This document shows positions 13,322-60,790 of a stretch of DNA of 64,000 nt, in pieces. How positions within the stretch are numbered: position 1 is the stretch's first letter; every line of letters starts with the position of its first letter. A program made the translations under genes and the position numbers. Below the pieces are notes generated by a model. That model had not been told where the DNA came from. It did no database searches and worked only from the letters and a program-made list of their open reading frames with translations. Source of the DNA: Escherichia coli (GTDB taxonomy: Bacteria > Pseudomonadota > Gammaproteobacteria > Enterobacterales > Enterobacteriaceae); NCBI RefSeq assembly GCF_013122565.1, contig NZ_CP053258.1, one strand, 5' to 3'.

Positions 13322-14797
13322 TTAAATATGATGAATAATCACTTTGTTGCCCCCCTCGCTTTTCGCTTCGCGTAAGGCTTTATCTGCTTCCGTCATGACA
13401 AGCGAGATATTACGCGTGTCACCCGTTGAAAAAACCGTGCCAATACTGATGGTCATTTGTTCAGGAACATCATATCTGTTACTAAAGCCGGTCAGGAGTT
13501 CGACATTTTTACGCATACGTTCCGCAATGATTTTTGCCTGGGCACTATTGAGTTCGGTAAATAGCAAGCCAAACACCTCACCCTCCAGTCGCGCTAAAAT
13601 ATCATCGGGGCGGATGCTTTGCTGGATAATATCGACAATTGAAACCAGCACTTTATCACCCACACGATGTCCCCATTGGGCATTGATACGTTTGAACTGA
13701 TTAATATCAACCAGCATGACACAGAAGTCCTTAACAACAGGTCGCGACAATAATGACTCTACGCTGTTGAAAAAGTAGCGCCGATTATAAATATTGGTCA
13801 GCACATCATGAACTGCCAGTTTGCTGGAGAGTTGCAGTTCCTGAAAAATGTTATAAATCAGAAAAGACACAACAAACAGTTTACTGGAGACTTCAATCCC
13901 GCGACTGATATACCAGATGGTGTAATTATACTCATCCAGAGTCAGTAGAAGTAAGTTACAGCATAGCGATGCCAGACATAATAATGCTATTAACGGCCAT
14001 AGTTCGCTGGCTAATCGTGTACGCATGATAATAAAGAACAGTAAAAATGCCCACAAACAAACCAATATTTTTGTATAGTTGATTCCCCAGGTCGCAGTAT
14101 GGTTGTCCGGACAGTAATCGACGACATACAAAGAATAGTCAGCGTTATAACTGCTCAGATTGTGTGCCAGAAGGGGAAAAACTAAAAAAGGGATCAGCGC
14201 CAGCAACAGGATTGCCATTTTTTTCTTATTGTTGTCAAGGATGTTGTCTTTTCCATAACAAAAGAGCGCCAGCGAGGTTAAACAAATAAAACTGAGTTGG
14301 CGGAAAATATAGAAAATAGAAACATCATTCGACTTTGTCTGAATCAGTGTACTGTCGCTGATAGGTTTATGGATAACAACAATAGTTTCAACTAAATAGA
14401 TAAGGCCACTTAAAAACGCAAGACTTAAAATGAGTGTTGGTAGAATTTGTTTGTTAGTGAAATATTTCATTAACATGAAAAGAAAAATGATGGCGTTAAG
14501 GAAAAACAAAGCCACAACGACCATCAGATAATTCATCTGTGGGATGAGTTTTACATTCGTGTTTTCGTTATATAAGGTGGTGATGCAAAATAAAATTAAC
14601 GTCAGCAATAAACTGAAAATAAAAAAGCTTTGAGCTTTTAATTTTTGTGTACCCATAGAAACCATAAAAAGGAGAGCAATATGAGTGCTGGATTTTATTG
14701 ATGGCAGAGATATATAGTTTTGACCAGGATCAATTTTCGTTAACGATAAAAAATATTTAAAGAATAACCCCAGGGAAATACGTGTTGACCGAATCAT
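13322..14797 (-). CDS. cdgI: Membrane GGDEF-domain protein, degenerate active site
   Basis: 491 aa; very AT-rich; multi-TM N-terminus; GGDEF-like domain with EGEVF in place of GGDEF. Confidence 0.88.
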   Translation of the reverse strand: MIRSTRISLGLFFKYFLSLTKIDPGQNYISLPSIKSSTHIALLFMVSMGTQKLKAQSFFIFSLLLTLILFCITTLYNENTNVKLIPQMNYLMVVVALFFLNAIIFLFMLMKYFTNKQILPTLILSLAFLSGLIYLVETIVVIHKPISDSTLIQTKSNDVSIFYIFRQLSFICLTSLALFCYGKDNILDNNKKKMAILLLALIPFLVFPLLAHNLSSYNADYSLYVVDYCPDNHTATWGINYTKILVCLWAFLLFFIIMRTRLASELWPLIALLCLASLCCNLLLLTLDEYNYTIWYISRGIEVSSKLFVVSFLIYNIFQELQLSSKLAVHDVLTNIYNRRYFFNSVESLLSRPVVKDFCVMLVDINQFKRINAQWGHRVGDKVLVSIVDIIQQSIRPDDILARLEGEVFGLLFTELNSAQAKIIAERMRKNVELLTGFSNRYDVPEQMTISIGTVFSTGDTRNISLVMTEADKALREAKSEGGNKVIIHHI

Positions 14798-14943
14798 TTT
14801 TCCGAATGATTGTTTTCTGGAACTAAATTGTGTAAAGGTTATGCTGTCATATTTAAAACGATTGTAAGCTAATGTATGTAATAAATGAGATAATTTACAG
14901 TGAGCTAAAAATCAGCCAGGCGATAATGACCCGGCTGATAGTT

Positions 14944-16239
<1,296 letters not shown>

Positions 16240-16339
16240 CTACATTTGCCAACTGTATGCTACGCCTGTGTTGCCGCTTCTCTGGCCCACGGTTCGCTGT
16301 CGTTGTAGGCCCGGTAGCATGTATACCGGGCCAGGGTTG

Positions 16340-18274
16340 TTAAGACGATTTACGTACGCGCAAATACCATTCGCACAGTAAACGCACCTGTTTACGGGTG
16401 TAGCCTTTTTCCATCATACGGTCGACAAAGTCGTCATGTTTCTTCTGCTCGTCGGTTGACGTTTTGGCGTTAAACGAAATAACCGGCAACAGCTCCTCGG
16501 TATTGGAGAACATTTTCTTCTCGATAACCGTGCGCAGTTTTTCATAGCTGGTCCAGTTCGGATTGCGTCCGCTGTTATTCGCTCTGGCGCGCAGTACGAA
16601 GTTAACAATCTCGTTGCGGAAATCTTTTGGATTACTGATCCCCGCCGGTTTCTCGATTTTCTCCAGCTCGGCGTTAAGAGACTCGCGGTCAAACAGCTGC
16701 CCGGTATCCGGATCGCGATACTCCTGATCCTGAATCCAGAAATCCGCGTAGGTAACATAACGGTCGAAAATGTTTTGCCCATATTCGGAATAGGATTCAA
16801 GGTAGGCCGTCTGGATCTCTTTGCCGATAAACTCGGCATATTTCGGGATCAGATAACCTTTCAGGAACTCCAGATAGCGTTCTGCCTGCTCTTGCGGGAA
16901 CTGCTCGCGCTCGATCTGCTGTTCCAGGACGTAGAACAGATGGACCGGGTTTGCCGCCACTTCTACATGATCGAAGTTGAACACGCGGGAGAGGATCTTA
17001 AACGCAAAACGCGTCGACAGACCGTTCATCCCTTCATCGACACCGGCATAGTCACGATATTCCTGATACGACTTGGCTTTGGGATCGGTGTCTTTCAGAC
17101 TTTCGCCATCATAAACCCGCATCTTTGAATAAATGCTGGAGTTTTCTGGCTCTTTCAGGCGCGAAAGAATGGAAAAACGTGACAGTGTTTCGAGCGTGCC
17201 AGGGGCGCAGGGGGCGTGAGTCAATTCACTGTGATTAAGCAATTTCTCGTAGATTTTGATCTCTTCGGAAATGCGCAAGCAATACGGCACCTTTACGATG
17301 TAAACACGATCGAGGAAGGCTTCGTTGTTTTTGTTATTACGGAAAGTGACCCATTCGGATTCGTTCGAGTGGGCGAGAATAATCCCGTTGAACGGCAGGG
17401 CGGAGATACCTTCCGTCCCGTTGTAGTTACCTTCCTGAGTGGCGGTTAACAGCGGATGCAGCACTTTTATCGGTGCTTTAAACATCTCAACGAATTCCAT
17501 GATCCCCTGATTGGCGCGGCATAGTGCACCGGAATAGCCATAGGCGTCCGGGTCATTCTGCGCGTAGTGTTCGAGTTTACGAATATCGACTTTCCCAACC
17601 AGCGCGGAGATGTCCTGGTTGTTCTCATCACCGGGTTCCGTTTTGGCGATGGCAATTTGTTGCAGAATTGACGGCCAGACCTTCACTACCCGGAACTTAG
17701 TGATATCGCCACCAAATTCATGCAGGCGTTTTGCCGCCCACGGCGACATGATGGTGCCGAGATAACGGCGAGGAATGCCATACTCTTTTTCCAGAATCTG
17801 CGCATCTTCCTGCGGATTGAAAAGACAGAACGGATGATCGTTGACCGGGCTACGCTCACCGTTGGCGCTCAATACATAAATCGGTACGAGCTGCATTAAT
17901 GATTTCAGTCGCTCAGCAAGCGATGATTTACCCCCACCCACAGGCCCCAGCAGATACAGGATTTGTTTCTTCTCTTCCAGCCCCTGAGCCGCGTGTTTCA
18001 GATAAGAGACAATCTGTTCAATCGCGTCTTCCATGCCGTAAAACTCTTCAAATGCCGGATAACGTGCAATGACCCGGTTAGAAAAGAGTCGAGAAAGTCT
18101 GGGTTCCTGGGCTGTATCGACCATGACAGGCTCACCGATAGCCATCAATAGCCGCTCAGCCGCGTTGGCATAAGCACTGCGATCTTGCCGACAAGTGGTA
18201 AGAAACTCCTGCAGTGTGAACTCTTCGTCCTTGGCAGCTTCATATCGCTGGCGATAGTGATCGAATATATTCAT
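16340..18274 (-). CDS. yeaG: PrkA-family serine protein kinase
   Basis: 644 aa; P-loop GPVGGGKSS. Confidence 0.9.
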   Translation of the reverse strand: MNIFDHYRQRYEAAKDEEFTLQEFLTTCRQDRSAYANAAERLLMAIGEPVMVDTAQEPRLSRLFSNRVIARYPAFEEFYGMEDAIEQIVSYLKHAAQGLEEKKQILYLLGPVGGGKSSLAERLKSLMQLVPIYVLSANGERSPVNDHPFCLFNPQEDAQILEKEYGIPRRYLGTIMSPWAAKRLHEFGGDITKFRVVKVWPSILQQIAIAKTEPGDENNQDISALVGKVDIRKLEHYAQNDPDAYGYSGALCRANQGIMEFVEMFKAPIKVLHPLLTATQEGNYNGTEGISALPFNGIILAHSNESEWVTFRNNKNNEAFLDRVYIVKVPYCLRISEEIKIYEKLLNHSELTHAPCAPGTLETLSRFSILSRLKEPENSSIYSKMRVYDGESLKDTDPKAKSYQEYRDYAGVDEGMNGLSTRFAFKILSRVFNFDHVEVAANPVHLFYVLEQQIEREQFPQEQAERYLEFLKGYLIPKYAEFIGKEIQTAYLESYSEYGQNIFDRYVTYADFWIQDQEYRDPDTGQLFDRESLNAELEKIEKPAGISNPKDFRNEIVNFVLRARANNSGRNPNWTSYEKLRTVIEKKMFSNTEELLPVISFNAKTSTDEQKKHDDFVDRMMEKGYTRKQVRLLCEWYLRVRKSS

Positions 18275-18376
18275 GGTATGCCGTCCTTTCGTTTTTTAGC
18301 ACAGGTTAAGAGCCGTTCATATGAATAGTAGAGGCTCCCGGAAGAGGTAAACTGAACGACGTCTCTTGCTAAAACA

Positions 18377-18393
18377 CAGCAACTCTCATGCCA
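18377..18393 (-). promoter_or_regulatory. Putative sigma54 (-24/-12) promoter for yeaG
   Basis: Minus-strand TGGCATgagagTTGCTG; GG and GC 10 nt apart, about 100 bp upstream of yeaG start. Confidence 0.4.
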
Positions 18394-18709
18394 TTTTATC
18401 GACGATGAGAACAACGTGCCCGGTGATACACCTTCAAAATTAAGCGTAGATGGCAAATGGAAAACTTGCCTGCACGGCTTTCTTAATTTCAATGGCATAT
18501 CAACAACTCATCCATAAATTTTGCATAATTAATGTAAAGACCAGGCTCGCCAGTAACGCTAAATTCATTTGGCTGTAAGCGCGGTGTCATCCGCGTCAGG
18601 AAAATTAAACAGTTACTTTAAAAAATGAAAACGTAAAAAGGTTGGGTTTCGATGTATTGACGGGTAAACTTTGTCGCCCGCTAAACATTTGTTTAAGGAA
18701 TGATTAATT

Positions 18710-19456
18710 GTGACCAAACTCAAACTTCTGGCACTTGGAGTGCTTATCGCAACGTCTGCAGGCGTAGCGCACGCTGAAGGTAAATTTTCCCTGGGCGCAG
18801 GCGTAGGTGTCGTTGAACACCCATATAAAGATTACGATACCGATGTGTACCCAGTACCGGTAATCAACTATGAAGGCGATAACTTCTGGTTCCGTGGCTT
18901 AGGTGGTGGTTACTACCTGTGGAATGACGCAACGGATAAACTTTCAATTACCGCTTACTGGTCGCCGCTTTACTTCAAAGCTAAAGACAGTGGCAATCAC
19001 CAAATGCGTCACCTGGATGACCGTAAGAGCACCATGATGGCTGGTCTGTCTTATGCTCACTTTACCCAGTACGGTTACCTGCGTACCACCCTGGCTGGCG
19101 ATACCCTGGATAACAGCAACGGCATCGTCTGGGATATGGCCTGGTTGTATCGTTACACCAACGGTGGCCTGACCGTGACTCCGGGTATTGGTGTGCAGTG
19201 GAACAGCGAAAATCAGAACGAATACTATTATGGCGTATCGCGCAAAGAGTCCGCTCGCAGCGGTCTGCGTGGCTATAACCCGAACGACAGCTGGAGCCCT
19301 TACCTGGAGCTGAGCGCCAGCTACAACTTCCTCGGCGACTGGAGTGTTTACGGTACCGCGCGCTACACCCGTCTGTCTGATGAAGTTACTGACAGCCCGA
19401 TGGTGGATAAATCCTGGACTGGCCTGATTTCTACCGGGATCACCTACAAATTCTGA
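18710..19456 (+). CDS. mipA: MltA-interacting outer-membrane protein
   Basis: 248 aa, GTG start, signal peptide, beta-barrel-like. Confidence 0.9.
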   Translation: MTKLKLLALGVLIATSAGVAHAEGKFSLGAGVGVVEHPYKDYDTDVYPVPVINYEGDNFWFRGLGGGYYLWNDATDKLSITAYWSPLYFKAKDSGNHQMRHLDDRKSTMMAGLSYAHFTQYGYLRTTLAGDTLDNSNGIVWDMAWLYRYTNGGLTVTPGIGVQWNSENQNEYYYGVSRKESARSGLRGYNPNDSWSPYLELSASYNFLGDWSVYGTARYTRLSDEVTDSPMVDKSWTGLISTGITYKF

Positions 19457-19486
19457 TAATGCATCTTTCCAGGGCATTTTGTGCAT

Positions 19487-19514
19487 AAAAACAGGGCGTG
19501 ATGCCCTGTTTTGC
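19487..19514 (+). terminator. Intrinsic terminator after mipA
   Basis: cagggc-gtgat-gccctg followed by ttttgc. Confidence 0.55.
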
Positions 19515-19545
19515 ATTACGGTGGTGCAATACCTGGGAGGAAACA

Positions 19546-20400
19546 ATGCAACAAAAAATGATTCAATTTAGTGGCGATGTCTCACTGCCAGCCATAGGGC
19601 AGGGAACATGGTATATGGGCGAAGATGCCAGTCATCGCAAAACAGAAGTTGCTGCACTACGCGCGGGCATTGAACTCGGTTTAACCCTCATTGATACCGC
19701 CGAAATGTATGCCGATGGCGGTGCCGAAAAGGTGGTTGGGGAAGCATTAACCGGTCTGCGAGAGAAGGTCTTTCTCGTCTCTAAAGTCTATCCGTGGAAT
19801 GCTGGCGGGCAAAAAGCGATAAATGCATGCGAAGCCAGTTTACGCCGTCTCAATACTGATTATCTCGATCTCTACTTATTACACTGGTCTGGCAGTTTCA
19901 CTTTTGAAGAGACTGTCGCAGCGATGGAAAAATTGATCGCTCAGGGAAAAATCCGCCGCTGGGGCGTTTCTAACCTTGATTATGCCGATATGCAGGAACT
20001 CTGGCAGCTGCCGGGGGGAAATCAGTGTGCCACTAATCAGGTGCTTTACCATCTCGGTTCACGAGGGATTGAGTACGATCTACTCCCCTGGTGCCAGCAA
20101 CAACAGATGACGGTGATGGCTTACAGTCCATTAGCCCAGGCCGGGCGGTTGCGCAATGGGCTGTTAAAAAACGCGGTAGTCAACGAAATTGCACATGCTC
20201 ACAATATCAGCGCGGCACAAGTATTGTTGGCGTGGGTAATCAGCCATCAGGGTGTGATGGCGATTCCAAAAGCGGCCACGATTGCCCATGTCCAACAAAA
20301 TGCGGCTGTGCTTGAGGTCGAACTTTCTTCAGCGGAATTAGCTATGTTGGATAAGGCATATCCGGCACCAAAAGGAAAAACTGCGCTGGATATGGTGTGA
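19546..20400 (+). CDS. yeaE: Aldo-keto reductase
   Basis: 284 aa from MQQKMIQF. Confidence 0.88.
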   Translation: MQQKMIQFSGDVSLPAIGQGTWYMGEDASHRKTEVAALRAGIELGLTLIDTAEMYADGGAEKVVGEALTGLREKVFLVSKVYPWNAGGQKAINACEASLRRLNTDYLDLYLLHWSGSFTFEETVAAMEKLIAQGKIRRWGVSNLDYADMQELWQLPGGNQCATNQVLYHLGSRGIEYDLLPWCQQQQMTVMAYSPLAQAGRLRNGLLKNAVVNEIAHAHNISAAQVLLAWVISHQGVMAIPKAATIAHVQQNAAVLEVELSSAELAMLDKAYPAPKGKTALDMV

Positions 20401-20450
20401 TGTTGATGCGTGCCGGATGCATCGCACCCGGCACACAACATTAACGCAAA

Positions 20451-21335
20451 TTAACGTTTGGTAACGCGAATGGATTGCGCCAGATGTGCAGGTTTTTCTT
20501 TGGTCACTTTTTGCGTTTCTGAAGCGTAAGCCGTTTCTACACAAACAAAGGTCTTGTAGCCATCGTCCGGCATGTCGCCCATGCTAACTGAAAGCGCCGG
20601 TCCCGGGTTCCAGCCGACAACGTTCAGATGATGCTGGTGGCCTACGGCGATAATACGATTCAGCGCTTCATCATTAATTACGCTGCAATCTTGCGGATTC
20701 AGATACACGCGATCGGTACGGTCAGGGAAGGTCTGAATACCGTCGGTCAGTACATCTTCTTTCGCGTCATTTACTTTATCAATGAAGCGATCGCCCAGCC
20801 CACTGACGCTTACCTTAGCGATATCACCCACGTTAAAGTAGGTATGCAGGGCAGAGGTGGTTTCAAATTCGCCATGAGATTCAAGATCGATTTCACAGGT
20901 TTTACCCACGCGGAAATGCGCTAACAGCGTAAAGTCGTGCGGCCAGAATTTTTTCGTCTCGTCGCTTTGTGTCAATTCAAAAGTCAGCGCTACGCCATCA
21001 GCATCTTCATAATGTGATTTCAGCGTCCACGGCAGGTTGCGGGCAAAACCGTGCGCAGGCAGACCTTGTTCTGCAGCCGGACCAAACCACGGCCAGCAAA
21101 CCGGTACGCCACCGCGAATAGCGACGCCATTTTTGAACGGTGTGTTGTTGCTCAACCACAGAACTTCTTCTTCACTCGCAGGTTTCCACGAGAGAAGGTG
21201 TGCGCCCTGTAATGCAAAAGAGGCTTTTACCTGGGGATGATCGACCACAATGAGGTCCAGTTCATCCAGTTTACGACGGGAGAGGACAGGGGAGATTTGT
21301 TCGATGACCGGAAGGGCAAAAATTTTATTAATCAT
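20451..21335 (-). CDS. yeaD: Aldose 1-epimerase-family protein (glucose-6-phosphate 1-epimerase-like)
   Basis: 294 aa from MINKIFALP; downstream of gapA. Confidence 0.88.
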   Translation of the reverse strand: MINKIFALPVIEQISPVLSRRKLDELDLIVVDHPQVKASFALQGAHLLSWKPASEEEVLWLSNNTPFKNGVAIRGGVPVCWPWFGPAAEQGLPAHGFARNLPWTLKSHYEDADGVALTFELTQSDETKKFWPHDFTLLAHFRVGKTCEIDLESHGEFETTSALHTYFNVGDIAKVSVSGLGDRFIDKVNDAKEDVLTDGIQTFPDRTDRVYLNPQDCSVINDEALNRIIAVGHQHHLNVVGWNPGPALSVSMGDMPDDGYKTFVCVETAYASETQKVTKEKPAHLAQSIRVTKR

Positions 21336-21365
21336 GACGCAGTCCTTTAACTTCATTTTATCAGG

Positions 21366-21397
21366 TAAAAAAAAGAGCGACCGAAGTCGCTCTTTTT
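21366..21397 (-). terminator. Intrinsic terminator after gapA
   Basis: A8-agagcgac-cgaa-gtcgctct-T5; T-run follows hairpin on minus strand. Confidence 0.65.
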
Positions 21398-21418
21398 AGA
21401 TCACAGTGTCATCTCAAC

Positions 21419-22426
<1,008 letters not shown>

Positions 22427-22755
22427 CTATTTGTTAGTGAATAAAAGGTTGCCTGTAAAATTACAAAAACCTTACGCAGCGTCAAGCGGAATCGTGTCAA
22501 TCATTGCGACAAATCAATCCTGTGCCTAAGCATTACGCGACTGACTCGCCTCACTCTTCCTTTGGGCTTGAGACCACATGGGGTCGGCGCCCCGAATTTT
22601 AAAGGGCAATTACGATAAAAATGTGATTTTCATCACGATTTAGGTGCAGCCATTTCGTCGAGATCAAGTTTAGGACAAAATTTTACCAGTTGGTGTTAAT
22701 GTTTTGTTAGAATCAGTCACGTAATGTGAGCACGATTAAAGTGAGATGTGAGCAA

Positions 22756-23169
22756 ATGGCTAATAAACCTTCGGCAGAAGAACTGAAAAAAAATTTGTCC
22801 GAGATGCAGTTTTACGTGACGCAGAATCATGGGACAGAGCCGCCATTTACGGGTCGTTTACTGCATAACAAGCGTGACGGCGTATATCACTGTTTGATCT
22901 GCGATGCCCCGCTGTTTCATTCCCAAACCAAGTATGATTCCGGCTGTGGCTGGCCCAGTTTCTACGAACCGGTGAGTGAAGAATCCATTCGTTATATCAA
23001 AGACTTGTCACATGGAATGCAGCGCATAGAAATTCGTTGCGGTAACTGTGATGCCCATCTGGGGCATGTCTTTCCCGACGGGCCGCAGCCAACGGGCGAA
23101 CGTTATTGTGTTAACTCTGCCTCTTTACGCTTTACCGATGGCGAAAACGGCGAAGAAATCAACGGTTGA
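22756..23169 (+). CDS. msrB: Peptide methionine-R-sulfoxide reductase
   Basis: 137 aa with CxxC...CxxC zinc site. Confidence 0.9.
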
Positions 23170-23210
23170 AAAAACGATTCAGCAACTTATTCCACAGGAG
23201 CGGAAAAATT

Positions 23211-23483
23211 ATGAATCTTGATGACATTATCAACAGCATGACGCCTGAGGTATACCAGCGTTTGTCGACCGCCGTTGAACTGGGGAAATGGCCTGATGGC
23301 GTTGCGTTGACCGAGGAACAAAAAGAGAACTGCCTGCAACTGGTGATGCTGTGGCAAGCCCGCCATAATACCGAAGCACAGCATATGACAATTGACACAA
23401 ATGGTCAGATGGTCATGAAGAGCAAACAGCAGTTAAAAGAAGATTTTGGTATCTCAGCAAAGCCTATTGCCATGTTTAAGTGA
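23211..23483 (+). CDS. yeaC: DUF1315 protein
   Basis: 90 aa from MNLDDIINSM. Confidence 0.85.
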   Translation: MNLDDIINSMTPEVYQRLSTAVELGKWPDGVALTEEQKENCLQLVMLWQARHNTEAQHMTIDTNGQMVMKSKQQLKEDFGISAKPIAMFK

Positions 23484-23592
23484 ATGAGTTATCTAGTATT
23501 TAAGCCTGTTATTAAGGGAGGGCAAATATACTTGTTCGGACGTCGTGTTTTAGCTGCAAGTAGGTTAAATGCAACACTGACAAGTATTATCT

Positions 23593-23623
23593 GGCCTACA
23601 ATGTCATTGAGGAAATGTAGGCC
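23593..23623. repeat. Hairpin (REP-like fragment) in yeaC-pncA intergenic junction
   Basis: ggcctaca-N15-tgtaggcc. Confidence 0.4.
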
Positions 23624-23643
23624 AGAGATGAATTCAACTAAAA

Positions 23644-24285
23644 TTACCCCTGCGTCTCTTCCCAGTCTGCCAGCGTATATAGCGTTGCCCCAGCTGCTGA
23701 CATTTCCATAAACGCGTGCGCACTGTCCTGTGGCTGGATATTCACCCCACGACAGCCATCGATAATCACGTTTACCTTATAACCTAACTGTAACGCGTCC
23801 AGCACGGTAAACTTCACGCAATAGTCAGTCGCCAGGCCCATAACGATCAATTCATCGATTTCATGATCGCGTAACCAGTCATCAAGCGAGGTTTTCTGCC
23901 GACGGCCGTTATCAAAAAAGGCACTGTAACTGTCAACTAAAGGATTTTCGCCTTTATGGAACACCGCTGCGATCGCTTTTTGGTTCAGTAACGGATGTAA
24001 TTGTGCGCCTTCACTGTTCTGCACACAGTGATCTGGCCAGAAGGTTTGTGGCAAACCGTCGAGTTGGCCTGGCGTATAAGGCTCTACACCGTGCTGACTG
24101 GCAAAACTGCCGTGATTCGCCGGGTGCCAGTCCTGACTGGCGATAACCGCTTCACCGCGCGACTGGCACCAGTCAATCAGGCGGTTAGCGACATCCACCG
24201 TACTGTCACCTTCCGGCACGGCGAGCGCGCCACCAGCACAGAAATCATTTTGTAAATCGACCAGTAACAGGGCGCGAGGGGGCAT
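23644..24285 (-). CDS. pncA: Nicotinamidase / pyrazinamidase
   Basis: 213 aa from MPPRALLLVDLQNDF. Confidence 0.9.
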   Translation of the reverse strand: MPPRALLLVDLQNDFCAGGALAVPEGDSTVDVANRLIDWCQSRGEAVIASQDWHPANHGSFASQHGVEPYTPGQLDGLPQTFWPDHCVQNSEGAQLHPLLNQKAIAAVFHKGENPLVDSYSAFFDNGRRQKTSLDDWLRDHEIDELIVMGLATDYCVKFTVLDALQLGYKVNVIIDGCRGVNIQPQDSAHAFMEMSAAGATLYTLADWEETQG

Positions 24286-24295
24286 TGCAGTCTCC

Positions 24296-25312
24296 TTAAT
24301 CATCCGGCGTCAGTTCGCCGCGCAGGTTTTGGCTCATGGCCTTGCGAATGGTTTCAGTATCCAGTTCCTGGCTAAGCAGGTAATGCAGTTTGGTTAGCGT
24401 GGCTTCTACAGTCATATCTGCACCGCCAATTACGCCGGCATGGGCGAGGGCGTTACCGGTGGCATAACCACCCATGTTCACTTTACCGGACATACATTGT
24501 GTCAGGTTGACCACCACAATACCGCGATCGCTGGCTTCTTGTAATTCCTGCAGGAAGGCTTTGTTTTGTGGCGCATTACCCACGCCATAGGAGCGCAGAA
24601 TCAATGCTTTCACCGGTTGGCGCAGAAAATTGCGCACGACGTCAGCAGAAATCCCCGGATAAATCGTCACTACGCCAATTGGTTGCGGGGTGATTGGATG
24701 AACGATCAATTCCCCATCACCGTGCGGGGCGGGTGGCGTATTCAAACGACGAATATGGATACCTGCTTCCAGTAACGGAGGAAGGTTTGGAGAGGCAAAC
24801 GCATCAAAACCATCGGCATGGGCTTTGGTAGTGCGGTTGCCGCGATACAGTCGGTTATTAAAAAAGAGTGTTACTTCGTTGATCGGATAATTCGCCGCAA
24901 CGTACAACGCATTCAGCAGATTAATTTGTCCGTCAGAGCGTAGCTCAGCCAGCGGGATTTGTGACCCTGTCACAATGACCGGTTTACCGAGATTCTCGAG
25001 CATGAACGACAGCGCAGAGGCGGTATACGCCATCGTGTCGGTACCGTGTAGAATGACAAAACCATCATAGTCGTCATAGTGCGCTTTAATATCTTCAGCA
25101 ATATGCTGCCAGTCTTCCGGCGTCATATCTGAAGAATCCATCAGTGGCGTATATTCATGAATGGTGAAATCTGGCATCTCCGGGCGATGGAATTCCGGCA
25201 TCAGCGCCAGTTGGCGTTGTAGATGACCTGACACCGGTATATAACCCTGCTCGGAACGCTGCATCCCGATGGTCCCGCCCGTGTAGGCAACGTAAATTGA
25301 TTTCTTTTGCAT
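24296..25312 (-). CDS. ansA: Cytoplasmic L-asparaginase I
   Basis: 338 aa MQKKSIYVAYTGGTIGM... Confidence 0.92.
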   Translation of the reverse strand: MQKKSIYVAYTGGTIGMQRSEQGYIPVSGHLQRQLALMPEFHRPEMPDFTIHEYTPLMDSSDMTPEDWQHIAEDIKAHYDDYDGFVILHGTDTMAYTASALSFMLENLGKPVIVTGSQIPLAELRSDGQINLLNALYVAANYPINEVTLFFNNRLYRGNRTTKAHADGFDAFASPNLPPLLEAGIHIRRLNTPPAPHGDGELIVHPITPQPIGVVTIYPGISADVVRNFLRQPVKALILRSYGVGNAPQNKAFLQELQEASDRGIVVVNLTQCMSGKVNMGGYATGNALAHAGVIGGADMTVEATLTKLHYLLSQELDTETIRKAMSQNLRGELTPDD

Positions 25313-25390
25313 GATATTGATATGAATGATATCGAAAGAGCAAAAGTATATACGTGAGGGGCAGCGAGCGCACCTGGATACTCTGTGGAT

Positions 25391-25440
25391 ATGAGAAAAG
25401 TCCGGCAGGACGGAGGGATTAGTGTCCCGCCGGAGAAAAG
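25391..25440 (-). terminator. Stem-loop downstream of the extra lipoprotein gene
   Basis: Minus strand: tccggcgggac-12 nt loop-gtcctgccgga then cttttctc. Confidence 0.4.
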
Positions 25441-25443
25441 TGG

Positions 25444-26166
25444 TTAATCCTGCAACGCATAGGTTACGGTCGTGACTACGCGTACCGTTTTATTAATCGC
25501 CGTAGGATCATCTTCATCACTGCCACTGGCAAAGATCTGGAATACGCCTTGTGAGGCATCGCTAATTGACCCCACCTGGCTACCTGAGTCCGTTGCAAAT
25601 TGTAGTGCGGCGTTGCGTGCATCTTTGGTGGCGGCAGCAATCATCTCAGCGCGCAGTGCGCCAATACCATTAAAGCGATAGGCGACTTTGCTCTCAGCGA
25701 TAGCGCCATCTGTAGCGACTTGCAGTTCGTTTAATTTCGCGACGACTTTTTCGACAGCAGCAACATTATGGGTTTTTATCGTCACTGACCCGTCTGCGTT
25801 ATAGCGTGGCATTGTGGGATCATCTTTCAGATAGAAGGAATCTGTTCGCTTGCTTGTCCATTGGCCCAGGATTATCTCTTTCTCGTTAATCCCCTGAGCA
25901 TTGAGTTCGGCAACAATTTTTTTCTGCGCGTCTTCCAGTTTCGGGAACAGTTCGCCGGGAACATTACCTTTAAAGTTAAGCGCAATTATTAATTCTGCCG
26001 TATCTGCGCGAACTTCTTTTTCAGAAAGCCCGCGCACATTGACATAACGGTTGTTGGTTTTTAAATGTTTAACACCATCGCCAACAAAATAACCACAGGC
26101 GCTAATCCCCAGTCCGAGGACGATAGCGGCAATTAAAGAGGGGGCCTTGTTCACTGATGACTCCAT
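25444..26166 (-). CDS. Predicted lipoprotein, SIMPL/DUF541-like (BP26/YggE-type) domain; no K-12 counterpart at this position
   Basis: 240 aa from MESSVNKAPSLIAAIVLGLGISA|C (lipobox ISAC); SIMPL-like pattern VNVRG...ADTAEL..., C-terminal KTVRVVTTVTYAL; ORF stays open upstream to a GTG at 26256, so the start is uncertain. Confidence 0.7.
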   Translation of the reverse strand: MESSVNKAPSLIAAIVLGLGISACGYFVGDGVKHLKTNNRYVNVRGLSEKEVRADTAELIIALNFKGNVPGELFPKLEDAQKKIVAELNAQGINEKEIILGQWTSKRTDSFYLKDDPTMPRYNADGSVTIKTHNVAAVEKVVAKLNELQVATDGAIAESKVAYRFNGIGALRAEMIAAATKDARNAALQFATDSGSQVGSISDASQGVFQIFASGSDEDDPTAINKTVRVVTTVTYALQD

Positions 26167-26269
26167 ATCAGATGCTAAATGAGCAAGGGAATGTAGTGGA
26201 GAGAGGGAGTGAAAGACAGTCCGATTCAGGAGTGTGGCCGACAGCATATCGGCCACATTTTTGCAGGAT

Positions 26270-28126
26270 TTAACGCACGTTGGCGCAGGTCAGGCAAAAC
26301 GCATAACGGTTTTGTGGGTCGTTAAACGCCGCCAGCTTGTCGCTTTCACTTTTAACGGTAGAGGCTACCGAGGCCAGCGGTGCAGGTAACATGGCCTGGA
26401 ACGCATCTGGCAACATTGCCCGGACAGAACCAGACATGTTGTCCATCACTTTGTCGAAGAAGGTCGGTTCATCAACGTAGTATTCCAGATGCCACTGTTT
26501 CACTTTTGCCAGCTCTGCTGCTTTGGCGACCGCATCATCGAAATCCCCGAGACTATCGACCAGCCCGTTAGCTTTTGCGTCCTGACCGGTCCAGACGTGG
26601 CCCTGGGCGATTTTATCAATCTGCTCCGGCGTCGAATGACGCGCATCAGCAACCAGCGTGATAAAGCGTTTATAGCCATTCTCAATGCTTAACTGCATCA
26701 TCTGCTGCGCTTCCGGCGGCAGTGCCCTGGTGATAGAAACATCCGCCAGCGGTGAAGTTGAGACACCATCAGTATGAACACCAATCGAATCCAGACTATT
26801 TTCTACGGTGGTGATCACGCCGAAGATACCGATAGAACCGGTCAGGGTGCTGGGGTTAGCCACAATGTAATTAGCTGGCGTGGAAATCCAGTAACCACCA
26901 GATGCCGCCATGCCGCCCATCGATACAACCACAGGCTTACCCGCAGCCCGGGCTGCTGCCAGTTCAGCGCGAATCACTTCAGACGCGGTAACGCTGCCGC
27001 CTGGGCTATTAACACGCAGAACAATCGCTTTCACTTTCGGGTCAAGGCGAGCGTCGCGGATTTGTGCCGCAGTGGTATCACCGCCAACATTCCCCTGAGT
27101 TTCCTCGCCATCCATAATTGCGCCATTAGCGAAGACGACACCGATGCTGTCACCGGTATCTGCTGGCGTTTTCAATGCGTAATCGTAATAACTGATGGCG
27201 CGATAATTTTTATCAGTCTTACTCCAGCCGAACTCTTTGGTCAGAGCTTTTTCGATTTCGGCACTCGATGCCAGTGCATCGACCAGCTTGTTTTCCAGCG
27301 CATATTTCGCGGTATCGCCACCGGTTTTGGTTAAACCTTCAAGCAACCCTTGCGCGCCAGGAAATACCTGCTGAGCAGGGATCTGCCGGTTAGCGGCAAC
27401 AGTATTCAGATAGTTTTGCCACAGCTCACCAATCCAGCGGCTGTCAGCTTCGCGGGCTGCCGGTGACATATCATCACGAATAAACGGTTCAACGGCAGAT
27501 TTATACGTACCCACGCGGAACACATGGGTGGAAACTTTCAGCTTATCCAGCAACGATTTGTAGTACAGACCGTTGGTGGCAAAGCCGTGTAGATCAACCA
27601 CGCCTTGCGGAGACAGCCAAATTTTATTGGCGAAACTGGCGAGATAATATTGCCCCTGGCTGTAGTTCTCGCCAACGGCATAAACCGGTTTCCCGCTGTC
27701 ACGAAACTCTTTCAGGGCTTTGCCGATGTACTGCATAGACGGCTGGTCGCCGCCTGCGAAGTTTTTCAGATCCATCACGATACCGGTGATATTGCGGTCG
27801 TCCTTCGCCTGGCGAATGGTGTTGACGATATCAAACAGTGAGTTTTCCTGCAGACGATCGGAACTGGCACCAAGTAGTTGGCGGCTTAATTTACTAAACC
27901 GCTGAGAACTGTCGGGTTTATCGACGATTACACCAGAAATGTCCAGCAGCAGTGCACCACGACTGGCCGTTTCTTTCGAATCACCACCACTGACCTGCAT
28001 CCAGATCCCCACACCAACCAGCACGAGAAAAATAAAGAACAGGTTAAGTACCATTTCACGGACGAAATTCAGCAGACGCCACGTCCATTTAAAAAATCCG
28101 GCAATAAATCGCCAAAGGGTTCGCAT
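26270..28126 (-). CDS. sppA: Signal peptide peptidase A (protease IV)
   Basis: 618 aa from [12 protein letters not shown]. Confidence 0.9.
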
Positions 28127-28286
28127 GTATTCTCCCAACTTAAGGTCACACCTGTCACAGGCGCAATAGATGTGGTTATCGTAATGACCCAACCGACACT
28201 TGTCAGCAGGAATTGCGGACTGTGCTGTAACAAAATCCACTCTCGTGTTAATTTTGTGAATAAATATCATGACAGGAGTTAATCAA

Positions 28287-28838
28287 ATGGATGCACTCGA
28301 ACTATTGATCAATCGCCGTAGCGCCTCCCGCCTGGCTGAACCCGCGCCAACGGGTGAACAACTGCAAAACATCCTGCGTGCGGGTATGCGCGCGCCGGAC
28401 CATAAGTCCATGCAACCGTGGCATTTTTTTGTGATTGAAGGGGAAGGACGCGAGCGTTTCAGCGCCGCACTGGAACAGGGGGCGATTGCTGCCGGTAGTG
28501 ATGACAAAGCTATCGACAAAGCCCGTAATGCGCCGTTCCGCGCACCGCTCATCATCACGGTGGTGGCGAAATGCGAAGAAAATCATAAAGTCCCGCGATG
28601 GGAACAGGAAATGTCTGCCGGATGCGCGGTCATGGCGATGCAAATGGCAGCCGTTGCCCAGGGGTTTGGCGGCATCTGGCGCAGTGGCGCATTAACTGAA
28701 AGCCCGGTAGTGCGTGAAGCATTCGGTTGCCGTGAGCAGGATAAAATTGTCGGTTTTCTCTACCTCGGTACGCCGCAGTTGAAAGCATCTACGTCGATAA
28801 ACGTCCCGGACCCGACGCCGTTTGTGACTTATTTCTGA
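28287..28838 (+). CDS. ydjA: NAD(P)H nitroreductase
   Basis: 183 aa from [12 protein letters not shown]. Confidence 0.88.
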
Positions 28839-28954
28839 TAATTGTCGCGAAACTGTCTGGATTGTGAGCAAAGGCGCAGGAATTCAGACACTCTCACTTA
28901 TCACTTCACGGAATGAGGGTTACCATACCCGGATTGCATTGACAGGAGATGTCC

Positions 28955-29998
28955 ATGAGCGAGAACTCGATTCGTTTGACCCAATACAGCCACGGAGCTG
29001 GTTGCGGCTGTAAAATTTCCCCAAAAGTGTTGGAAACCATCCTGCACAGTGAGCAGGCGAAGTTTGTTGATCCGAATTTGCTTGTGGGTAATGAAACCCG
29101 CGACGATGCGGCGGTGTACGATCTGGGCAATGGCACCAGCGTTATCAGTACCACCGACTTCTTTATGCCGATCGTTGATAATCCTTTCGATTTTGGCCGC
29201 ATTGCGGCGACTAACGCCATCAGCGATATCTTCGCGATGGGGGGCAAACCGATTATGGCGATTGCGATCCTCGGCTGGCCGATTAACAAACTTTCCCCGG
29301 AAATTGCCCGCAAAGTAACCGAAGGTGGACGCTATGCATGCCGTCAGGCGGGTATTGCGCTGGCTGGCGGTCACTCCATCGATGCGCCGGAGCCGATTTT
29401 TGGTCTGGCGGTAACGGGGATCGTACCGACCGAGCGGGTGAAGAAAAACAGTACCGCACAAGCCGGATGCAAACTGTTCCTGACGAAACCGCTGGGGATC
29501 GGCGTTCTTACCACGGCTGAGAAAAAATCACTGTTGAAACCAGAACATCAGGGACTGGCGACGGAAGTGATGTGCCGGATGAACATCGCAGGCGCGTCCT
29601 TTGCCAACATTGAAGGCGTAAAAGCGATGACCGACGTAACGGGCTTTGGCCTGCTGGGCCATTTGAGCGAAATGTGTCAGGGCGCAGGTGTGCAGGCGCG
29701 CGTTGACTATGACGCGATCCCAAAATTGCCGGGGGTTGAAGAGTACATTAAGTTGGGCGCAGTGCCTGGCGGCACCGAACGTAACTTTGCCAGCTACGGT
29801 CATCTGATGGGTGAAATGCCGCGTGAAGTGCGCGATTTGCTGTGCGATCCGCAAACTTCTGGCGGTTTGCTGCTGGCGGTCATGCCGGAAGCAGAAAATG
29901 AGGTTAAAGCTACAGCCGCCGAGTTTGGCATTGAACTGACGGCGATTGGCGAACTGGTGCCAGCGCGCGGCGGTCGTGCCATGGTTGAGATCCGTTAA
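28955..29998 (+). CDS. selD: Selenide, water dikinase (selenophosphate synthetase)
   Basis: 347 aa [23 protein letters not shown]. Confidence 0.92.
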
Positions 29999-30002
29999 TT
30001 CA

Positions 30003-31964
30003 ATGCGGTTGTTTATTGCCGAAAAACCGAGTCTGGCGCGTGCCATTGCTGATGTCCTGCCCAAACCGCACCGGAAAGGCGATGGCTTTATTGAGTGCGG
30101 TAATGGTCAGGTGGTGACCTGGTGTATCGGTCACCTGCTTGAGCAGGCGCAGCCAGACGCCTACGACAGCCGCTATGCGCGCTGGAATCTTGCGGATTTG
30201 CCGATTGTCCCGGAAAAGTGGCAATTACAGCCCCGACCCTCCGTGACCAAACAACTTAATGTCATCAAACGCTTTTTGCATGAAGCCAGCGAAATCGTTC
30301 ATGCCGGGGACCCGGATCGTGAAGGGCAATTGCTGGTGGATGAAGTGCTGGACTATCTGCAACTGGCACCGGAAAAGCGCCAGCAGGTGCAGCGTTGCTT
30401 GATAAACGACCTGAACCCGCAGGCGGTTGAGCGGGCGATCGACCGTCTTCGTTCCAACAGTGAGTTTGTACCGCTGTGCGTTTCTGCGCTGGCGCGAGCG
30501 CGTGCCGACTGGCTGTACGGCATCAATATGACCCGTGCGTATACCATTCTCGGTCGCAATGCCGGTTATCAGGGCGTACTTTCCGTGGGACGCGTGCAGA
30601 CACCCGTGCTCGGGCTGGTGGTGCGCCGCGATGAAGAGATTGAAAACTTCGTGGCGAAAGACTTCTTTGAAGTCAAAGCACATATCGTGACACCTGCCGA
30701 TGAGCGGTTTACCGCTATCTGGCAACCGAGCGAAGCGTGTGAACCGTACCAGGATGAAGAAGGGCGCTTGTTACATCGTCCACTGGCGGAGCATGTGGTT
30801 AACCGCATTAGTGGTCAACCGGCTATTGTCACCAGCTATAACGATAAACGGGAATCAGAATCCGCGCCGCTGCCTTTTTCGCTTTCGGCGTTGCAGATTG
30901 AAGCGGCAAAACGCTTTGGTCTGAGCGCGCAGAACGTGCTTGATATCTGCCAGAAGCTGTACGAAACGCACAAGCTAATCACTTATCCGCGTTCCGATTG
31001 TCGCTATTTGCCAGAAGAACATTTTGCCGGACGCCACGCGGTGATGAATGCCATCAGCGTTCATGCACCGGGCTTGTTACCGCAGCCGGTGGTAGATCCG
31101 AATATGCGCAACCGCTGTTGGGATGACAAAAAGGTCGATGCGCACCACGCCATCATCCCGACCGCACGGAGTTCTGCGATCAACCTGACGGAGAACGAAG
31201 CGAAGGTCTATAACCTGATTGCCCGTCAGTACTTGATGCAGTTCTGCCCGGATGCGGTCTTCCGCAAGTGTGTTATCGAACTGGACATTGCCAAAGGCAA
31301 ATTTGTCGCTAAAGCCCGTTTTCTTGCTGAAGCAGGCTGGCGCACGCTGTTAGGCAGCAAAGAGCGCGATGAAGAAAACGACGGCACGCCATTGCCTGTG
31401 GTGGCGAAAGGCGATGAGTTGCTGTGTGAAAAAGGTGAAGTGGTAGAGCGGCAAACCCAGCCGCCGCGCCATTTTACCGATGCAACACTGCTTTCGGCGA
31501 TGACCGGGATCGCGCGCTTTGTACAGGACAAAGATCTGAAAAAGATCCTCCGTGCTACCGATGGTCTGGGGACAGAAGCAACGCGTGCCGGGATTATTGA
31601 ACTGCTGTTCAAGCGTGGCTTCCTGACCAAAAAAGGGCGCTATATCCACTCTACCGACGCCGGAAAAGCGTTATTCCATTCGCTGCCGGAGATGGCGACG
31701 CGACCGGACATGACCGCTCACTGGGAATCGGTGCTGACGCAAATCAGCGAAAAGCAGTGTCGCTACCAGGACTTTATGCAGCCGCTGGTGGGGACGCTAT
31801 ATCAGCTTATTGATCAAGCCAAACGTACTCCGGTGCGGCAGTTTCGCGGCATTGTGGCTCCGGGCAGTGGTGGCAGTGCTGATAAGAAAAAGGCTGCAAC
31901 GCGTAAACGTAGTGCGAAAAAAAGTCCGCCAGCAGATGAAGCCGGAAGCGGGGCGATAGCGTAA
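30003..31964 (+). CDS. topB: DNA topoisomerase III
   Basis: 653 aa [20 protein letters not shown], Toprim and topo IA domains. Confidence 0.92.
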
Positions 31965-32091
31965 GCAAGCGAATCTTTCGTGCTATTCGAGTCATATTCT
32001 GAAATATCCAGCGGATCAAGAAAATTCGTTGGATATTTTTTTCGCATGGATAAAATTATCGCCTCTAAAGTATGTAATAACAGGGAATGTG

Positions 32092-33123
32092 ATGAAAAAA
32101 GTTTTATTACAAAACCATCCAGGGAGTGAAAAGTATTCTTTTAACGGCTGGGAAATATTTAATATTAATTTAGACCAGGTGATTAAAGAAAATAAACCTA
32201 TGCTGCTTTGTAAGTGGGGGTTTTATATAACCTGTACTTTCGCTGCACTGTTAGTTTGTGCAGGCCTTACAGCAAATGGTTTAAGTGATAAAGGCAAAGT
32301 GACCGCTGGCTATGCTTTTCTTTATCTTTTAATTATGGCGGCTTTGGTTATTCGAGCTGGCTTCAGGGCAAAAAAAGAACAGTTACACTATTATAAGGCA
32401 AAGGGTATTGAGCCGCTGAGTGAAGAAAAGTTGCAGGCATTGCGGCTGATTGCACCCAATCGCTTCTATAACCAACAGTGGTCTGAATCGCTTGAATTTT
32501 GGCCACGGAAGCCTGCATTGGGAACGGATACTTTTCGCTATCATGTTTTACGTTTTGAGTCTGTCGGAGTGACTCGCCAGCGTCGCAAGTCTTTGGATGA
32601 CAGCTGGGGGATAGTCGATAGCCAAAGTTATATCGCTTTAATGGAATATTTTCTTTCAGGTGAGCATGGCTCAAATGCATTTAAAGAACACATGGAAGAA
32701 AATCCGCAAGAAGTGATTGCGATGTTAAGTAAAGTTAAGGATTTTCCTGAGGATTATCTTTATGACTGTACCATCCGTCGAATTGATAAGTCATCTCCAC
32801 GCTTGATATGGGCTGCCGAGATAGCATGGATAATAGGCTTAACCTGCTCGACATACCAGAATGGAACGATTGAGGAAGATCTGGCCTGGCACTATATTTT
32901 GGCTGCCTCGAAAAAAGCCTATGAACTCTTTGAGAGCGAAGAAGAGTTCCATCGAAACAGTTTGATGGGGTCATGGTACTGGCATGCTTTCTGCTATCGA
33001 ATGAAACTCATGGACGCTGAGCTGGAAGAAGGTCATCTCTACGACGTGGAAATTCTGGAACATTACCGAAAGAAGTGTCGTTGGCCCATTAAAAACCTTC
33101 CCTGGGGCACATCCTCAAACTGA
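32092..33123 (+). CDS. ynjI: DUF1266 inner-membrane protein
   Basis: AT-rich ORF; start ATG at 32092 or GTG at 32089. Confidence 0.8.
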   Translation: MKKVLLQNHPGSEKYSFNGWEIFNINLDQVIKENKPMLLCKWGFYITCTFAALLVCAGLTANGLSDKGKVTAGYAFLYLLIMAALVIRAGFRAKKEQLHYYKAKGIEPLSEEKLQALRLIAPNRFYNQQWSESLEFWPRKPALGTDTFRYHVLRFESVGVTRQRRKSLDDSWGIVDSQSYIALMEYFLSGEHGSNAFKEHMEENPQEVIAMLSKVKDFPEDYLYDCTIRRIDKSSPRLIWAAEIAWIIGLTCSTYQNGTIEEDLAWHYILAASKKAYELFESEEEFHRNSLMGSWYWHAFCYRMKLMDAELEEGHLYDVEILEHYRKKCRWPIKNLPWGTSSN

Positions 33124-33129
33124 CCTCTT

Positions 33130-33225
33130 TGCCGGGGGCGCTGCGCTTGCCCGGCCTACATTAGAGCGTAACTGCAATGAATCGTGCCCATTTGTAGGCT
33201 GATAAGCGTAGCGCCATCAGGCATT
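33130..33225. repeat. REP (BIME) element
   Basis: gcccggcctaca ... tgtaggctgataagcgtagcgccatcaggc, classic REP consensus. Confidence 0.7.
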
Positions 33226-33231
33226 TACAAC

Positions 33232-34575
33232 TTAAATCACACCCTGCGCCAGCATCGCATCGGCAACCTTCACAAAACCGGCAATGTTCGCGCCCTGCAC
33301 GTAGTTGGTTTGCTCACCTTCACCACCATGCTCAACACAGGCATGGTGGATATCCAGCATGATGTGATGCAAACGTGCGTCAACTTTCTCGGCTTTCCAG
33401 CCCAGGCGCGCAGCGTTTTGCGCCATTTCAAGGCCTGACGTTGCTACACCGCCAGCATTAGCCGCTTTACCCGGTGCAAACAGTACGCCTGCCTGCTGGA
33501 ACAGTTCAGTCGCTTCGATGGTGGTCGGCATATTTGCCCCTTCGGCGACGGCTTTAACGCCATTGGCGATAAGCTGATGCGCGGCGTCAACATCCAGTTC
33601 GTTCTGGGTGGCGCAAGGCAGGGCGATATCAACCGGTACAGACCACGGCTGTTGGCCTTCGAGATAGACCAGACCAAATTCTTTGGCGTAATCTGCCACT
33701 CGACCATCGCGGCTGGCTTTGATTTCGATAAGACGTGCCAGTTTCTCTTTCGTGAATCCGCTTTCATCAACTACAGTGCCGCTGGAGTCTGACGCAGTGA
33801 TCACACGAGCACCAAATTCCATCGCTTTTTCGATAGCGTACTGGGCGACGTTGCCGGAGCCAGAAACGGAAACGCGCATCCCTTCAAAACCCATACCGTG
33901 GCGTTTTAGCATTGCTTCTGTGAAATAAACCAGACCGTAGCCGGTAGCTTCCGGGCGAATAAGACTACCGCCAAATGAAAGGCCCTTACCGGTGAAGACG
34001 CAGGCGGTATTGTTGGAGAGCTTTTTCATCATCCCCGCCATAAAGCCGACTTCACGACCACCAACCCCGATATCACCTGCCGGAACGTCGGTATCCGCGC
34101 CCAGGTGACGATACAGTTCAGTCATCAGCGCCTGGCAAAAACGCATCACTTCACCTTCACTTTTTCCTTTCGGATCGAAATCGCTGCCGCCTTTACCACC
34201 GCCCATCGGCAGAGTAGTCAGGGCATTTTTGAAGGTTTGTTCGAAGCCGAGGAATTTAAGAATGGAGAGGTTAACTGACGGATGGAAGCGCATACCGCCT
34301 TTGTACGGGCCGATGGCAGAGCTGAACTGCACACGCCATGCACGGTTGACCTGTACCTGATTGCGATCATCAACCCATACCACGCGAAACTGGATCACGC
34401 GCTCCGGTTCAACCAGACGCTCCAGTAATGACATCTGGCGATATTTTGGATTTTGTTCAAGAAAAGGCCAGAGTGTGGTCATTACTTCACGAACGGCTTG
34501 CGCGAACTCGGTTTGATTCGGGTCGCGCTTTTGGACATGGTTGAGGAATGACTCCAGAGAATATGTCTGATCCAT
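33232..34575 (-). CDS. gdhA: NADP-specific glutamate dehydrogenase
   Basis: 447 aa MDQTYSLESFLNHVQKRDP... Confidence 0.95.
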   Translation of the reverse strand: MDQTYSLESFLNHVQKRDPNQTEFAQAVREVMTTLWPFLEQNPKYRQMSLLERLVEPERVIQFRVVWVDDRNQVQVNRAWRVQFSSAIGPYKGGMRFHPSVNLSILKFLGFEQTFKNALTTLPMGGGKGGSDFDPKGKSEGEVMRFCQALMTELYRHLGADTDVPAGDIGVGGREVGFMAGMMKKLSNNTACVFTGKGLSFGGSLIRPEATGYGLVYFTEAMLKRHGMGFEGMRVSVSGSGNVAQYAIEKAMEFGARVITASDSSGTVVDESGFTKEKLARLIEIKASRDGRVADYAKEFGLVYLEGQQPWSVPVDIALPCATQNELDVDAAHQLIANGVKAVAEGANMPTTIEATELFQQAGVLFAPGKAANAGGVATSGLEMAQNAARLGWKAEKVDARLHHIMLDIHHACVEHGGEGEQTNYVQGANIAGFVKVADAMLAQGVI

Positions 34576-60574: not shown

Positions 60575-60790
60575 AGATGCGGCGTGAACCTTGCATCCGG
60601 CGATTAATTCCTACAAAGGCGGCGTAACTGCGCCGCTTGAGACTGCTGACAAACGCAAAACTGCCTGATGCGCTTCGCTTATCAGGCCTACGCGTTTCCT
60701 GCAATATATTGAATTTGCACAGTTTTGTAGGCCGGATAAGGCGTTCACGTCGCATCCGGCATAAACAAAGCGCACTATGTAAATCATTTG
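60575..60790. repeat. BIME: cluster of REP units between chbG and katE
   Basis: gcctgatgcgcttcgcttatcaggcctac and tgtaggccggataaggcgttcacgtcgcatccggc. Confidence 0.7.

Follow-up and report, generated by a model that had tools for sequence, protein, structure and literature searches.

The ydjLKJIHGFE cluster of Escherichia coli K-12 codes for a kinase, YdjH, and an aldolase, YdjI, whose substrates are long-chain acid sugars (Huddleston & Raushel 2019, as cited in PMC9602453). A polymorphism of this cluster, uneven across the E. coli phylogroups, has already been published (PMC9602453): among 700 isolates, ydjI was found in 96.6% of those of phylogroup A, 29.9% of B1, 50% of C, and 100% of each of B2, D, and E (Table 2 therein), the ydj-null state being concentrated in B1. 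The same polymorphism is met in the window, i.e., the 64-kb stretch of E. coli DNA analysed here, which carries the null allele of the locus occupied by the cluster in K-12, between pncA and yeaC. The survey gives gene prevalence only; how the junction is built, how old the haplotype is, and what the site looks like in other genera were worked out in the present analysis; a literature search on the pncA–yeaC junction itself yielded only a genome-reduction announcement. Like integrase-mediated genomic islands, the K-12 ydj cluster is a multi-gene block present or absent at a fixed chromosomal site, but unlike them it is accompanied by no tRNA, integrase, IS, or direct repeat, and the divergence of its cargo tracks that of the flanking core genes.

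The gene order in the window is yeaD(−), gapA(−), msrB(+), yeaC(+), pncA(−), ansA(−), an extra ORF(−), and sppA(−). YeaC matches Pfam DUF1315 and is 97% identical to its K-12 counterpart, and PncA, matching Pfam Isochorismatase, is 99% identical to that of K-12. In MG1655 (NC_000913.3) the annotated order is pncA-ydjE-F-G-H-I-J-K-L-yeaC, just as given in the initial annotation of this DNA; ydjE–L are not placed elsewhere relative to yeaC and pncA in that reference. The 160 bp reported there between the two stop codons (23484–23643) and the hairpin within them (23593–23623) were confirmed, as was the absence of the cluster: none of the eight ydj genes is present and no ydj homologue was found within the 64-kb window. 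The sole match, a 27%-identical paralogue of YdjG, is yeaE and not a ydj gene. A 75-aa ORF (23484–23711, plus strand), overlapping pncA in antisense and having no support, was dismissed. The features of the junction are collected in Table 1.

Table 1. Features of the ydj-less yeaC–pncA junction (positions in the window)
Feature	Position	Strand	Remarks
yeaC (DUF1315)	23211–23483	+	last gene of the msrB–yeaC pair; stop codon TGA at 23481–23483
yeaC–pncA spacer, ydj-less haplotype	23484–23643		exactly 160 bp from stop codon to stop codon
yeaC-proximal part of the spacer	23484–23530	+	weak homology to the first ~47 bp downstream of yeaC in K-12
Indel point, approximate	23531–23549		in K-12 ~9.05 kb: ydjE stop codon through ydjL plus ~320 bp upstream of ydjL
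pncA-proximal part of the spacer	23550–23643	−	homologous to the 92-bp pncA–ydjE intergenic region of K-12; 72–75% identity, 3 indels
ATCTGGCCTAC	23589–23599	+	10/11 match to the natural IS621 target ATCAGGCCTAC; mismatch at position 4
Palindrome	23590–23626		11-bp stem, 15-nt loop, 21 nt downstream of the pncA stop codon
pncA (nicotinamidase)	23644–24285	−	last gene of the ansA–pncA pair; convergent with yeaC

At either end, the spacer can be aligned with the K-12 piece that flanks ydj on that side, its last ~94 bp with the pncA–ydjE intergenic region almost to the ydjE stop codon, and therefore the ydj block maps to the indel point given in Table 1. The K-12 stretch just 3' of yeaC forms a hairpin, ATCCCCTT..AAGGGGAT, which is degenerate in the window counterpart. 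Neither a duplication nor a ydj remnant was found at the indel point. The target-site duplications or REP units that the initial annotation had suggested looking for at the K-12 borders of ydj are not there either: the longest word common to both junction neighbourhoods is a chance 6-mer, and no integrase, transposase/IS, or tRNA lies at these borders, only ydj genes being annotated between pncA and yeaC in MG1655. The G+C content of the ydj block is 46.4% against 47.5–51.9% (51.9% in ansA–pncA), a modest difference. Another inverted repeat within the spacer, ATACTTGT..ACAAGTAT (~23538–23585), is not kept in L007, a contig of another Escherichia species, and was dismissed as chance.

The ydj-less junction is common. 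The msrB–yeaC–spacer–pncA–ansA segment forms one contiguous piece in 1090 of the 5426 complete E. coli genomes (~20%) and is split in two in the other 4335 matching genomes of this set, while the K-12 ydj block occurs in exactly 4336 genomes, the complement of the 1090. Because the two counts are complementary, ydj is missing from the whole of the junction-bearing genomes and not relocated in them. The 160-bp spacer itself was found in 1089 complete genomes, in 945 of them at an identity of at least 99%, and that of the window is identical to the spacer of MB53, which assigns it to the ydj-null haplotype. This state extends beyond B1, as the window and MB53 share, besides the spacer, a SIMPL gene 99.1% identical to that of O157:H7. 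Moreover, JNE120442, which is ydj-null, and 47538, a ydj+ urinary isolate, have the same YeaC, PncA, and AnsA proteins.

The pncA-proximal ~94 bp of the spacer give an idea of the age of the empty haplotype, all the estimates being based on fewer than 100 aligned non-coding bases. In this stretch the empty haplotype shows 72–75% identity to ydj+ E. coli and differs from it by three indels (one of 11 bp); ydj+ E. coli of different backgrounds are 92–100% identical to each other, K-12 is 81% identical to E. whittamii and 77.5% to Escherichia sp. E1V33, and the window is 80% identical to L007. The flanking genes of the latter are 89–94% identical to those of the window, and its ydj-less spacer of 167 bp aligns end to end with the 160 bp of the window at 78–80%. 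These values point to an empty haplotype whose age is similar to that of the splits between Escherichia species and not to a fresh deletion from the E. coli ydj+ allele. The implication of the initial annotation that no recent deletion is involved is right in this respect, as the empty spacer differs greatly from the ydj+ flanks and another Escherichia species has it too. All four ydj-null E. coli examined end yeaC with TGA, and all five ydj+ ones with TAA (L001 and L083–L086 among those compared); since the codon differs by state, the diverged haplotype starts at the yeaC stop codon itself.

Within E. coli, the diversity of the empty spacer is low but real, with 0, 2, and 7 differences from the window in MB53, H15, and JNE120442, respectively. 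MB53 has a spacer identical to that of the window, yet its adjacent pncA–ansA flank differs at 30 of 1408 positions, and H15 (empty) and STEC367 (ydj+) have the same PncA and YeaC proteins. The exact PncA protein of the window was found in only 3 contigs of the collection, one of which (L087, GCA_018838375.1) is ydj+ and has no SIMPL gene: there the window's PncA is linked to ydjE-F-G, and the ansA–sppA gap is free of SIMPL. The same pncA allele therefore occurs with the opposite ydj state. The best identity to positions 14000–34000 of the window among the 5426 complete E. coli genomes is 98.3%. Judging from these sequence comparisons, the spacer is uncoupled from its flanks, a pattern that would arise if the core genes on either side had undergone homologous recombination again and again.

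Another ydj-less spacer, 102 bp long, is found in Escherichia sp. MOD1-EC7003 (L003, 10274–10375). It keeps the K-12-type yeaC-proximal hairpin (61 of 67 positions identical) and differs in its pncA-proximal sequence, having an unrelated hairpin, AAATGCCCG..CGGGCATTT, where the GGCCTACA palindrome would be. It represents a third Escherichia haplotype and shows that the site has undergone at least one further independent event; it resembles the product of a separate deletion from a ydj+ allele.

The site was also surveyed in 80 species-representative Enterobacteriaceae loci, a set that does not include E. fergusonii, E. marmotae, or the E. coli type genome. yeaC and pncA converge directly in 23 of the 80 species, including Salmonella arizonae/diarizonae, Kosakonia, and Phytobacter; an HNH gene alone lies between them in 3, a GH18 chitinase-like gene with or without HNH in 28 (3 of these being Kluyvera with ~6 kb of additional cargo), and ydj in 17, belonging to Escherichia, Citrobacter, the K. 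oxytoca group, Raoultella, and Intestinirhabdus, the content being other or not determinable in the remaining 9. The content of the yeaC–pncA interval varies throughout the family. Of the 17 ydj loci, five contain ydj alone (E. whittamii, E. sp. E1V33, C. amalonaticus S646, Intestinirhabdus, and UBA3516) and 12 contain it together with GH18 (the C. freundii complex, the K. oxytoca group, and R. planticola); the orientation of ydj is the same in all of them, and in every locus reaching pncA it adjoins that gene. The GH18 gene, with or without the small HNH endonuclease gene, is found in many species of Citrobacter, Enterobacter, Klebsiella, Raoultella, Lelliottia, and Kluyvera (L009 10334–12068, L021, L072, and others), and the extra cargo in Kluyvera comprises a sigma-54-type regulator and monooxygenase-like genes. 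In E. albertii NBRC 107761 (L004, 8882–9330), ~180 bp downstream of yeaC resemble the ydjL–yeaC intergenic region of E. whittamii and are followed by unrelated sequence; this contig stops 449 bp after yeaC.

The nucleotide identity of ydj between K-12 and other genera is 72–83%, and that of msrB together with yeaC 74–84%. Because the divergence of ydj matches that of msrB and yeaC, a long vertical residence of the cluster is indicated and not a recent gain by the K-12 lineage. The marks of a mobile island, i.e., cargo younger than its flanks or of atypical composition, are absent from the ydj block on both counts (identities as above; G+C 46.4%). The cluster, treated in the initial annotation as an accessory island of the K-12 lineage, would instead be an old resident, with the empty state more likely an old loss allele. 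Nevertheless, the ydj genes of C. braakii (L023) and K. oxytoca (L050) are 85–87% identical versus 78–81% for their flanks, and when R. planticola (L067) is compared with C. braakii as well, the ranges are 85–89% for ydj and 77–82% for msrB and yeaC next to it, a hint that the GH18–ydj segment has to some extent been exchanged between genera.

The window is thus probably best read as the ydj-null haplotype of a long-standing presence/absence polymorphism, with an old loss allele favoured, by a modest preference, over a site that was never filled. The ydj cluster would have resided at the site before Escherichia, Citrobacter, and Klebsiella diverged, and a single clean deletion, long ago in an Escherichia lineage, would have given rise to the empty haplotype. 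Homologous recombination in the conserved genes on either side may then have swapped the two haplotypes between E. coli lineages, B1 now being mostly ydj-null, and the consequence would be the loss of the YdjH/YdjI pathway for catabolism of long-chain acid sugars. Against an old deletion speak its very clean endpoints, within ~15 bp of the ydjE stop codon and ~50 bp from the yeaC stop codon, with no gene remnant, as left by insertion of a cassette into an existing spacer and less expected of a random deletion. Many independent losses are also required, because yeaC and pncA converge directly in 23 of the 80 species, and the lower G+C content of ydj (46.4% vs 51.9%) and the greater likeness of the C. 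braakii and K. oxytoca ydj genes than of their flanks count against this reading too.

The strongest competitor, clearly less probable though still deserving attention, is an ancestral, never-occupied site, as proposed in the initial annotation: the 160-bp spacer would be the pre-insertion state, and the ydj cassette would have been inserted mid-spacer in the lineage leading to most E. coli. The collinearity of the spacer with both K-12 flanks agrees with this, as do the clean mid-spacer position of a ydj block having its own promoter region, the presence of the empty haplotype in the other Escherichia species represented by L007, the direct junction in 23 of 80 species, and the slightly lower G+C content of the block; this reading keeps its share of probability because the indel endpoints are very clean and the ydj-less species many. 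It is at odds with the fact that E. whittamii, E. sp. E1V33, Citrobacter, the K. oxytoca group, Raoultella, and Intestinirhabdus carry ydj at exactly this site and oriented alike, and since ydj is as diverged as the flanking genes, any insertion predates the genus. No target-site duplication or mobile-element gene accompanies the block, and ydj is near-universal in A, B2, D, and E, its absence being concentrated in the derived phylogroup B1. With ydj at this site in several genera and as diverged as its neighbours, the notion of an ancestral empty site is left unsupported.

Still more tentatively, the ydj+ and ydj-null states could be a trans-species polymorphism in Escherichia, older than E. 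coli, in which niche-dependent selection on some acid-sugar substrate would keep both states while they are shuffled between phylogroups. A recent deletion of ydj from a K-12-like allele in the strain's own lineage is very improbable: nothing speaks for it beyond the absence of ydj itself, and it would leave flanks ~99% identical to those of ydj+ E. coli, whereas the pncA-proximal 94 bp reach only 72–75% and contain three indels, one of them of 11 bp; yeaC has a different stop codon in each ydj state, and 1089 genomes of varied background share this spacer. An assembly or scaffolding artefact joining yeaC to pncA has nothing in its favour and can practically be dismissed, an identical junction being found in 1090 independently finished genomes.

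The variant is an ordinary one, a common and already reported gene-content difference involving no new kind of element or mechanism. The ydj-null junction marks the E. coli lineages without the partly characterised YdjH/YdjI sugar-acid pathway, and the locus would offer a clear instance of a chromosomal presence/absence polymorphism transferred by homologous recombination and not by a mobile element. Simple typing could make use of the junction, and studies of introgression in Escherichia could draw on the old, diverged haplotypes.

The palindrome downstream of pncA, GGCCTACA-N15-TGTAGGCC, occurs only once in the 64-kb window, and 100 shuffles yielded no such match. Its stem is formed by TCTGGCCTACA and TGTAGGCCAGA (23590–23600 and 23616–23626), and its folding energy is −18.9 kcal/mol (z = −5.2 vs shuffles). 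The same palindrome lies 10–21 nt downstream of the pncA stop codon in ydj+ E. coli, E. whittamii, and Escherichia sp. E1V33, and it is thus not the mark of an island border. The arms, TGGCCTACA and GTAGGCCA, are invariant in 9 Escherichia haplotypes, with variation in the loop and surroundings. As the stem does not vary, there is no covariation, and conservation of an RNA structure is inseparable from that of a sequence motif. A scan of 23100–24400 for Rho-independent terminators found no terminator-like site; the stem is there, but no U-tract follows it on either strand. A search of 23300–23800 with Rfam covariance models gave no match up to E = 10. The palindrome probably acts as a 3' stem-loop stabilising or ending the convergent ansA–pncA and msrB–yeaC transcripts.

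The description of this hairpin as REP-like holds in part. Its left arm matches the REP 3' tail CTTATCMGGCCTAC (motif CTTATC[A/C]GGCCTAC) at 12 of 14 positions and its right arm at 11 of 14 (counted by eye), the real REPs in the window matching at 14 of 14. For comparison, two canonical tail-to-tail REP pairs (BIMEs) at 60664–60762 and 33135–33220 were used; the arms of the palindrome are arranged tail-to-tail as in these genuine BIMEs, but its linker is 15 nt long vs about 33 nt, and, unlike REP/BIME, it is single-copy and keeps its position across Escherichia species. The 5' half (GCCGGATG..CG) of the ~35-nt imperfect palindrome of a REP is lacking, no REP internal stem is found in it, and the sequences upstream of the arms (…CACTGACAAGT and …TTGAATTCATC) contain no complement to ATTATCTGGC. 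The palindrome is accordingly REP-like and not a canonical REP. The REP annotation of MG1655 was dropped as a test, the copy of NC_000913.3 used being uninformative, with no repeat features listed in 65 kb.

One arm of the palindrome is also a target of IS621, an IS110-family element with a bridge-RNA recombinase, whose natural target is ATCAGGCCTAC and which tolerates a mismatch at position 4 (PMC11208160). In E. coli 2011C-3911, IS621 (L090, 4115–5391) sits at the hairpin arm, at the place corresponding to 23596–23597 of the window, exactly at the CT of ATCTGGC-CT-AC and with CT on both sides. The palindrome arm hence shares with REPs the targeting by IS621 at the CT core of ATCAGGCCTAC, and ATCTGGCCTAC, with T at the tolerated position 4, is a non-canonical REP-tail target used naturally by this element. 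Taken as a whole, the palindrome would be a conserved feature of the pncA 3' flank composed of two REP-tail motifs and an incidental IS621 target.

Adjoining the ydj junction, the SIMPL/DUF541 insert constitutes a third presence/absence difference from K-12. It is ~840 bp long, lies between ansA and sppA (25392–26232), and codes for a SIMPL/DUF541 protein (ORF 25444–26256, minus strand). The insert is present in 943 of the 5426 complete E. coli genomes, and absent from K-12 and H15; the gene of the window is 99.1% identical to that of O157:H7/O55:H7 and 97.8% to those of other lineages.
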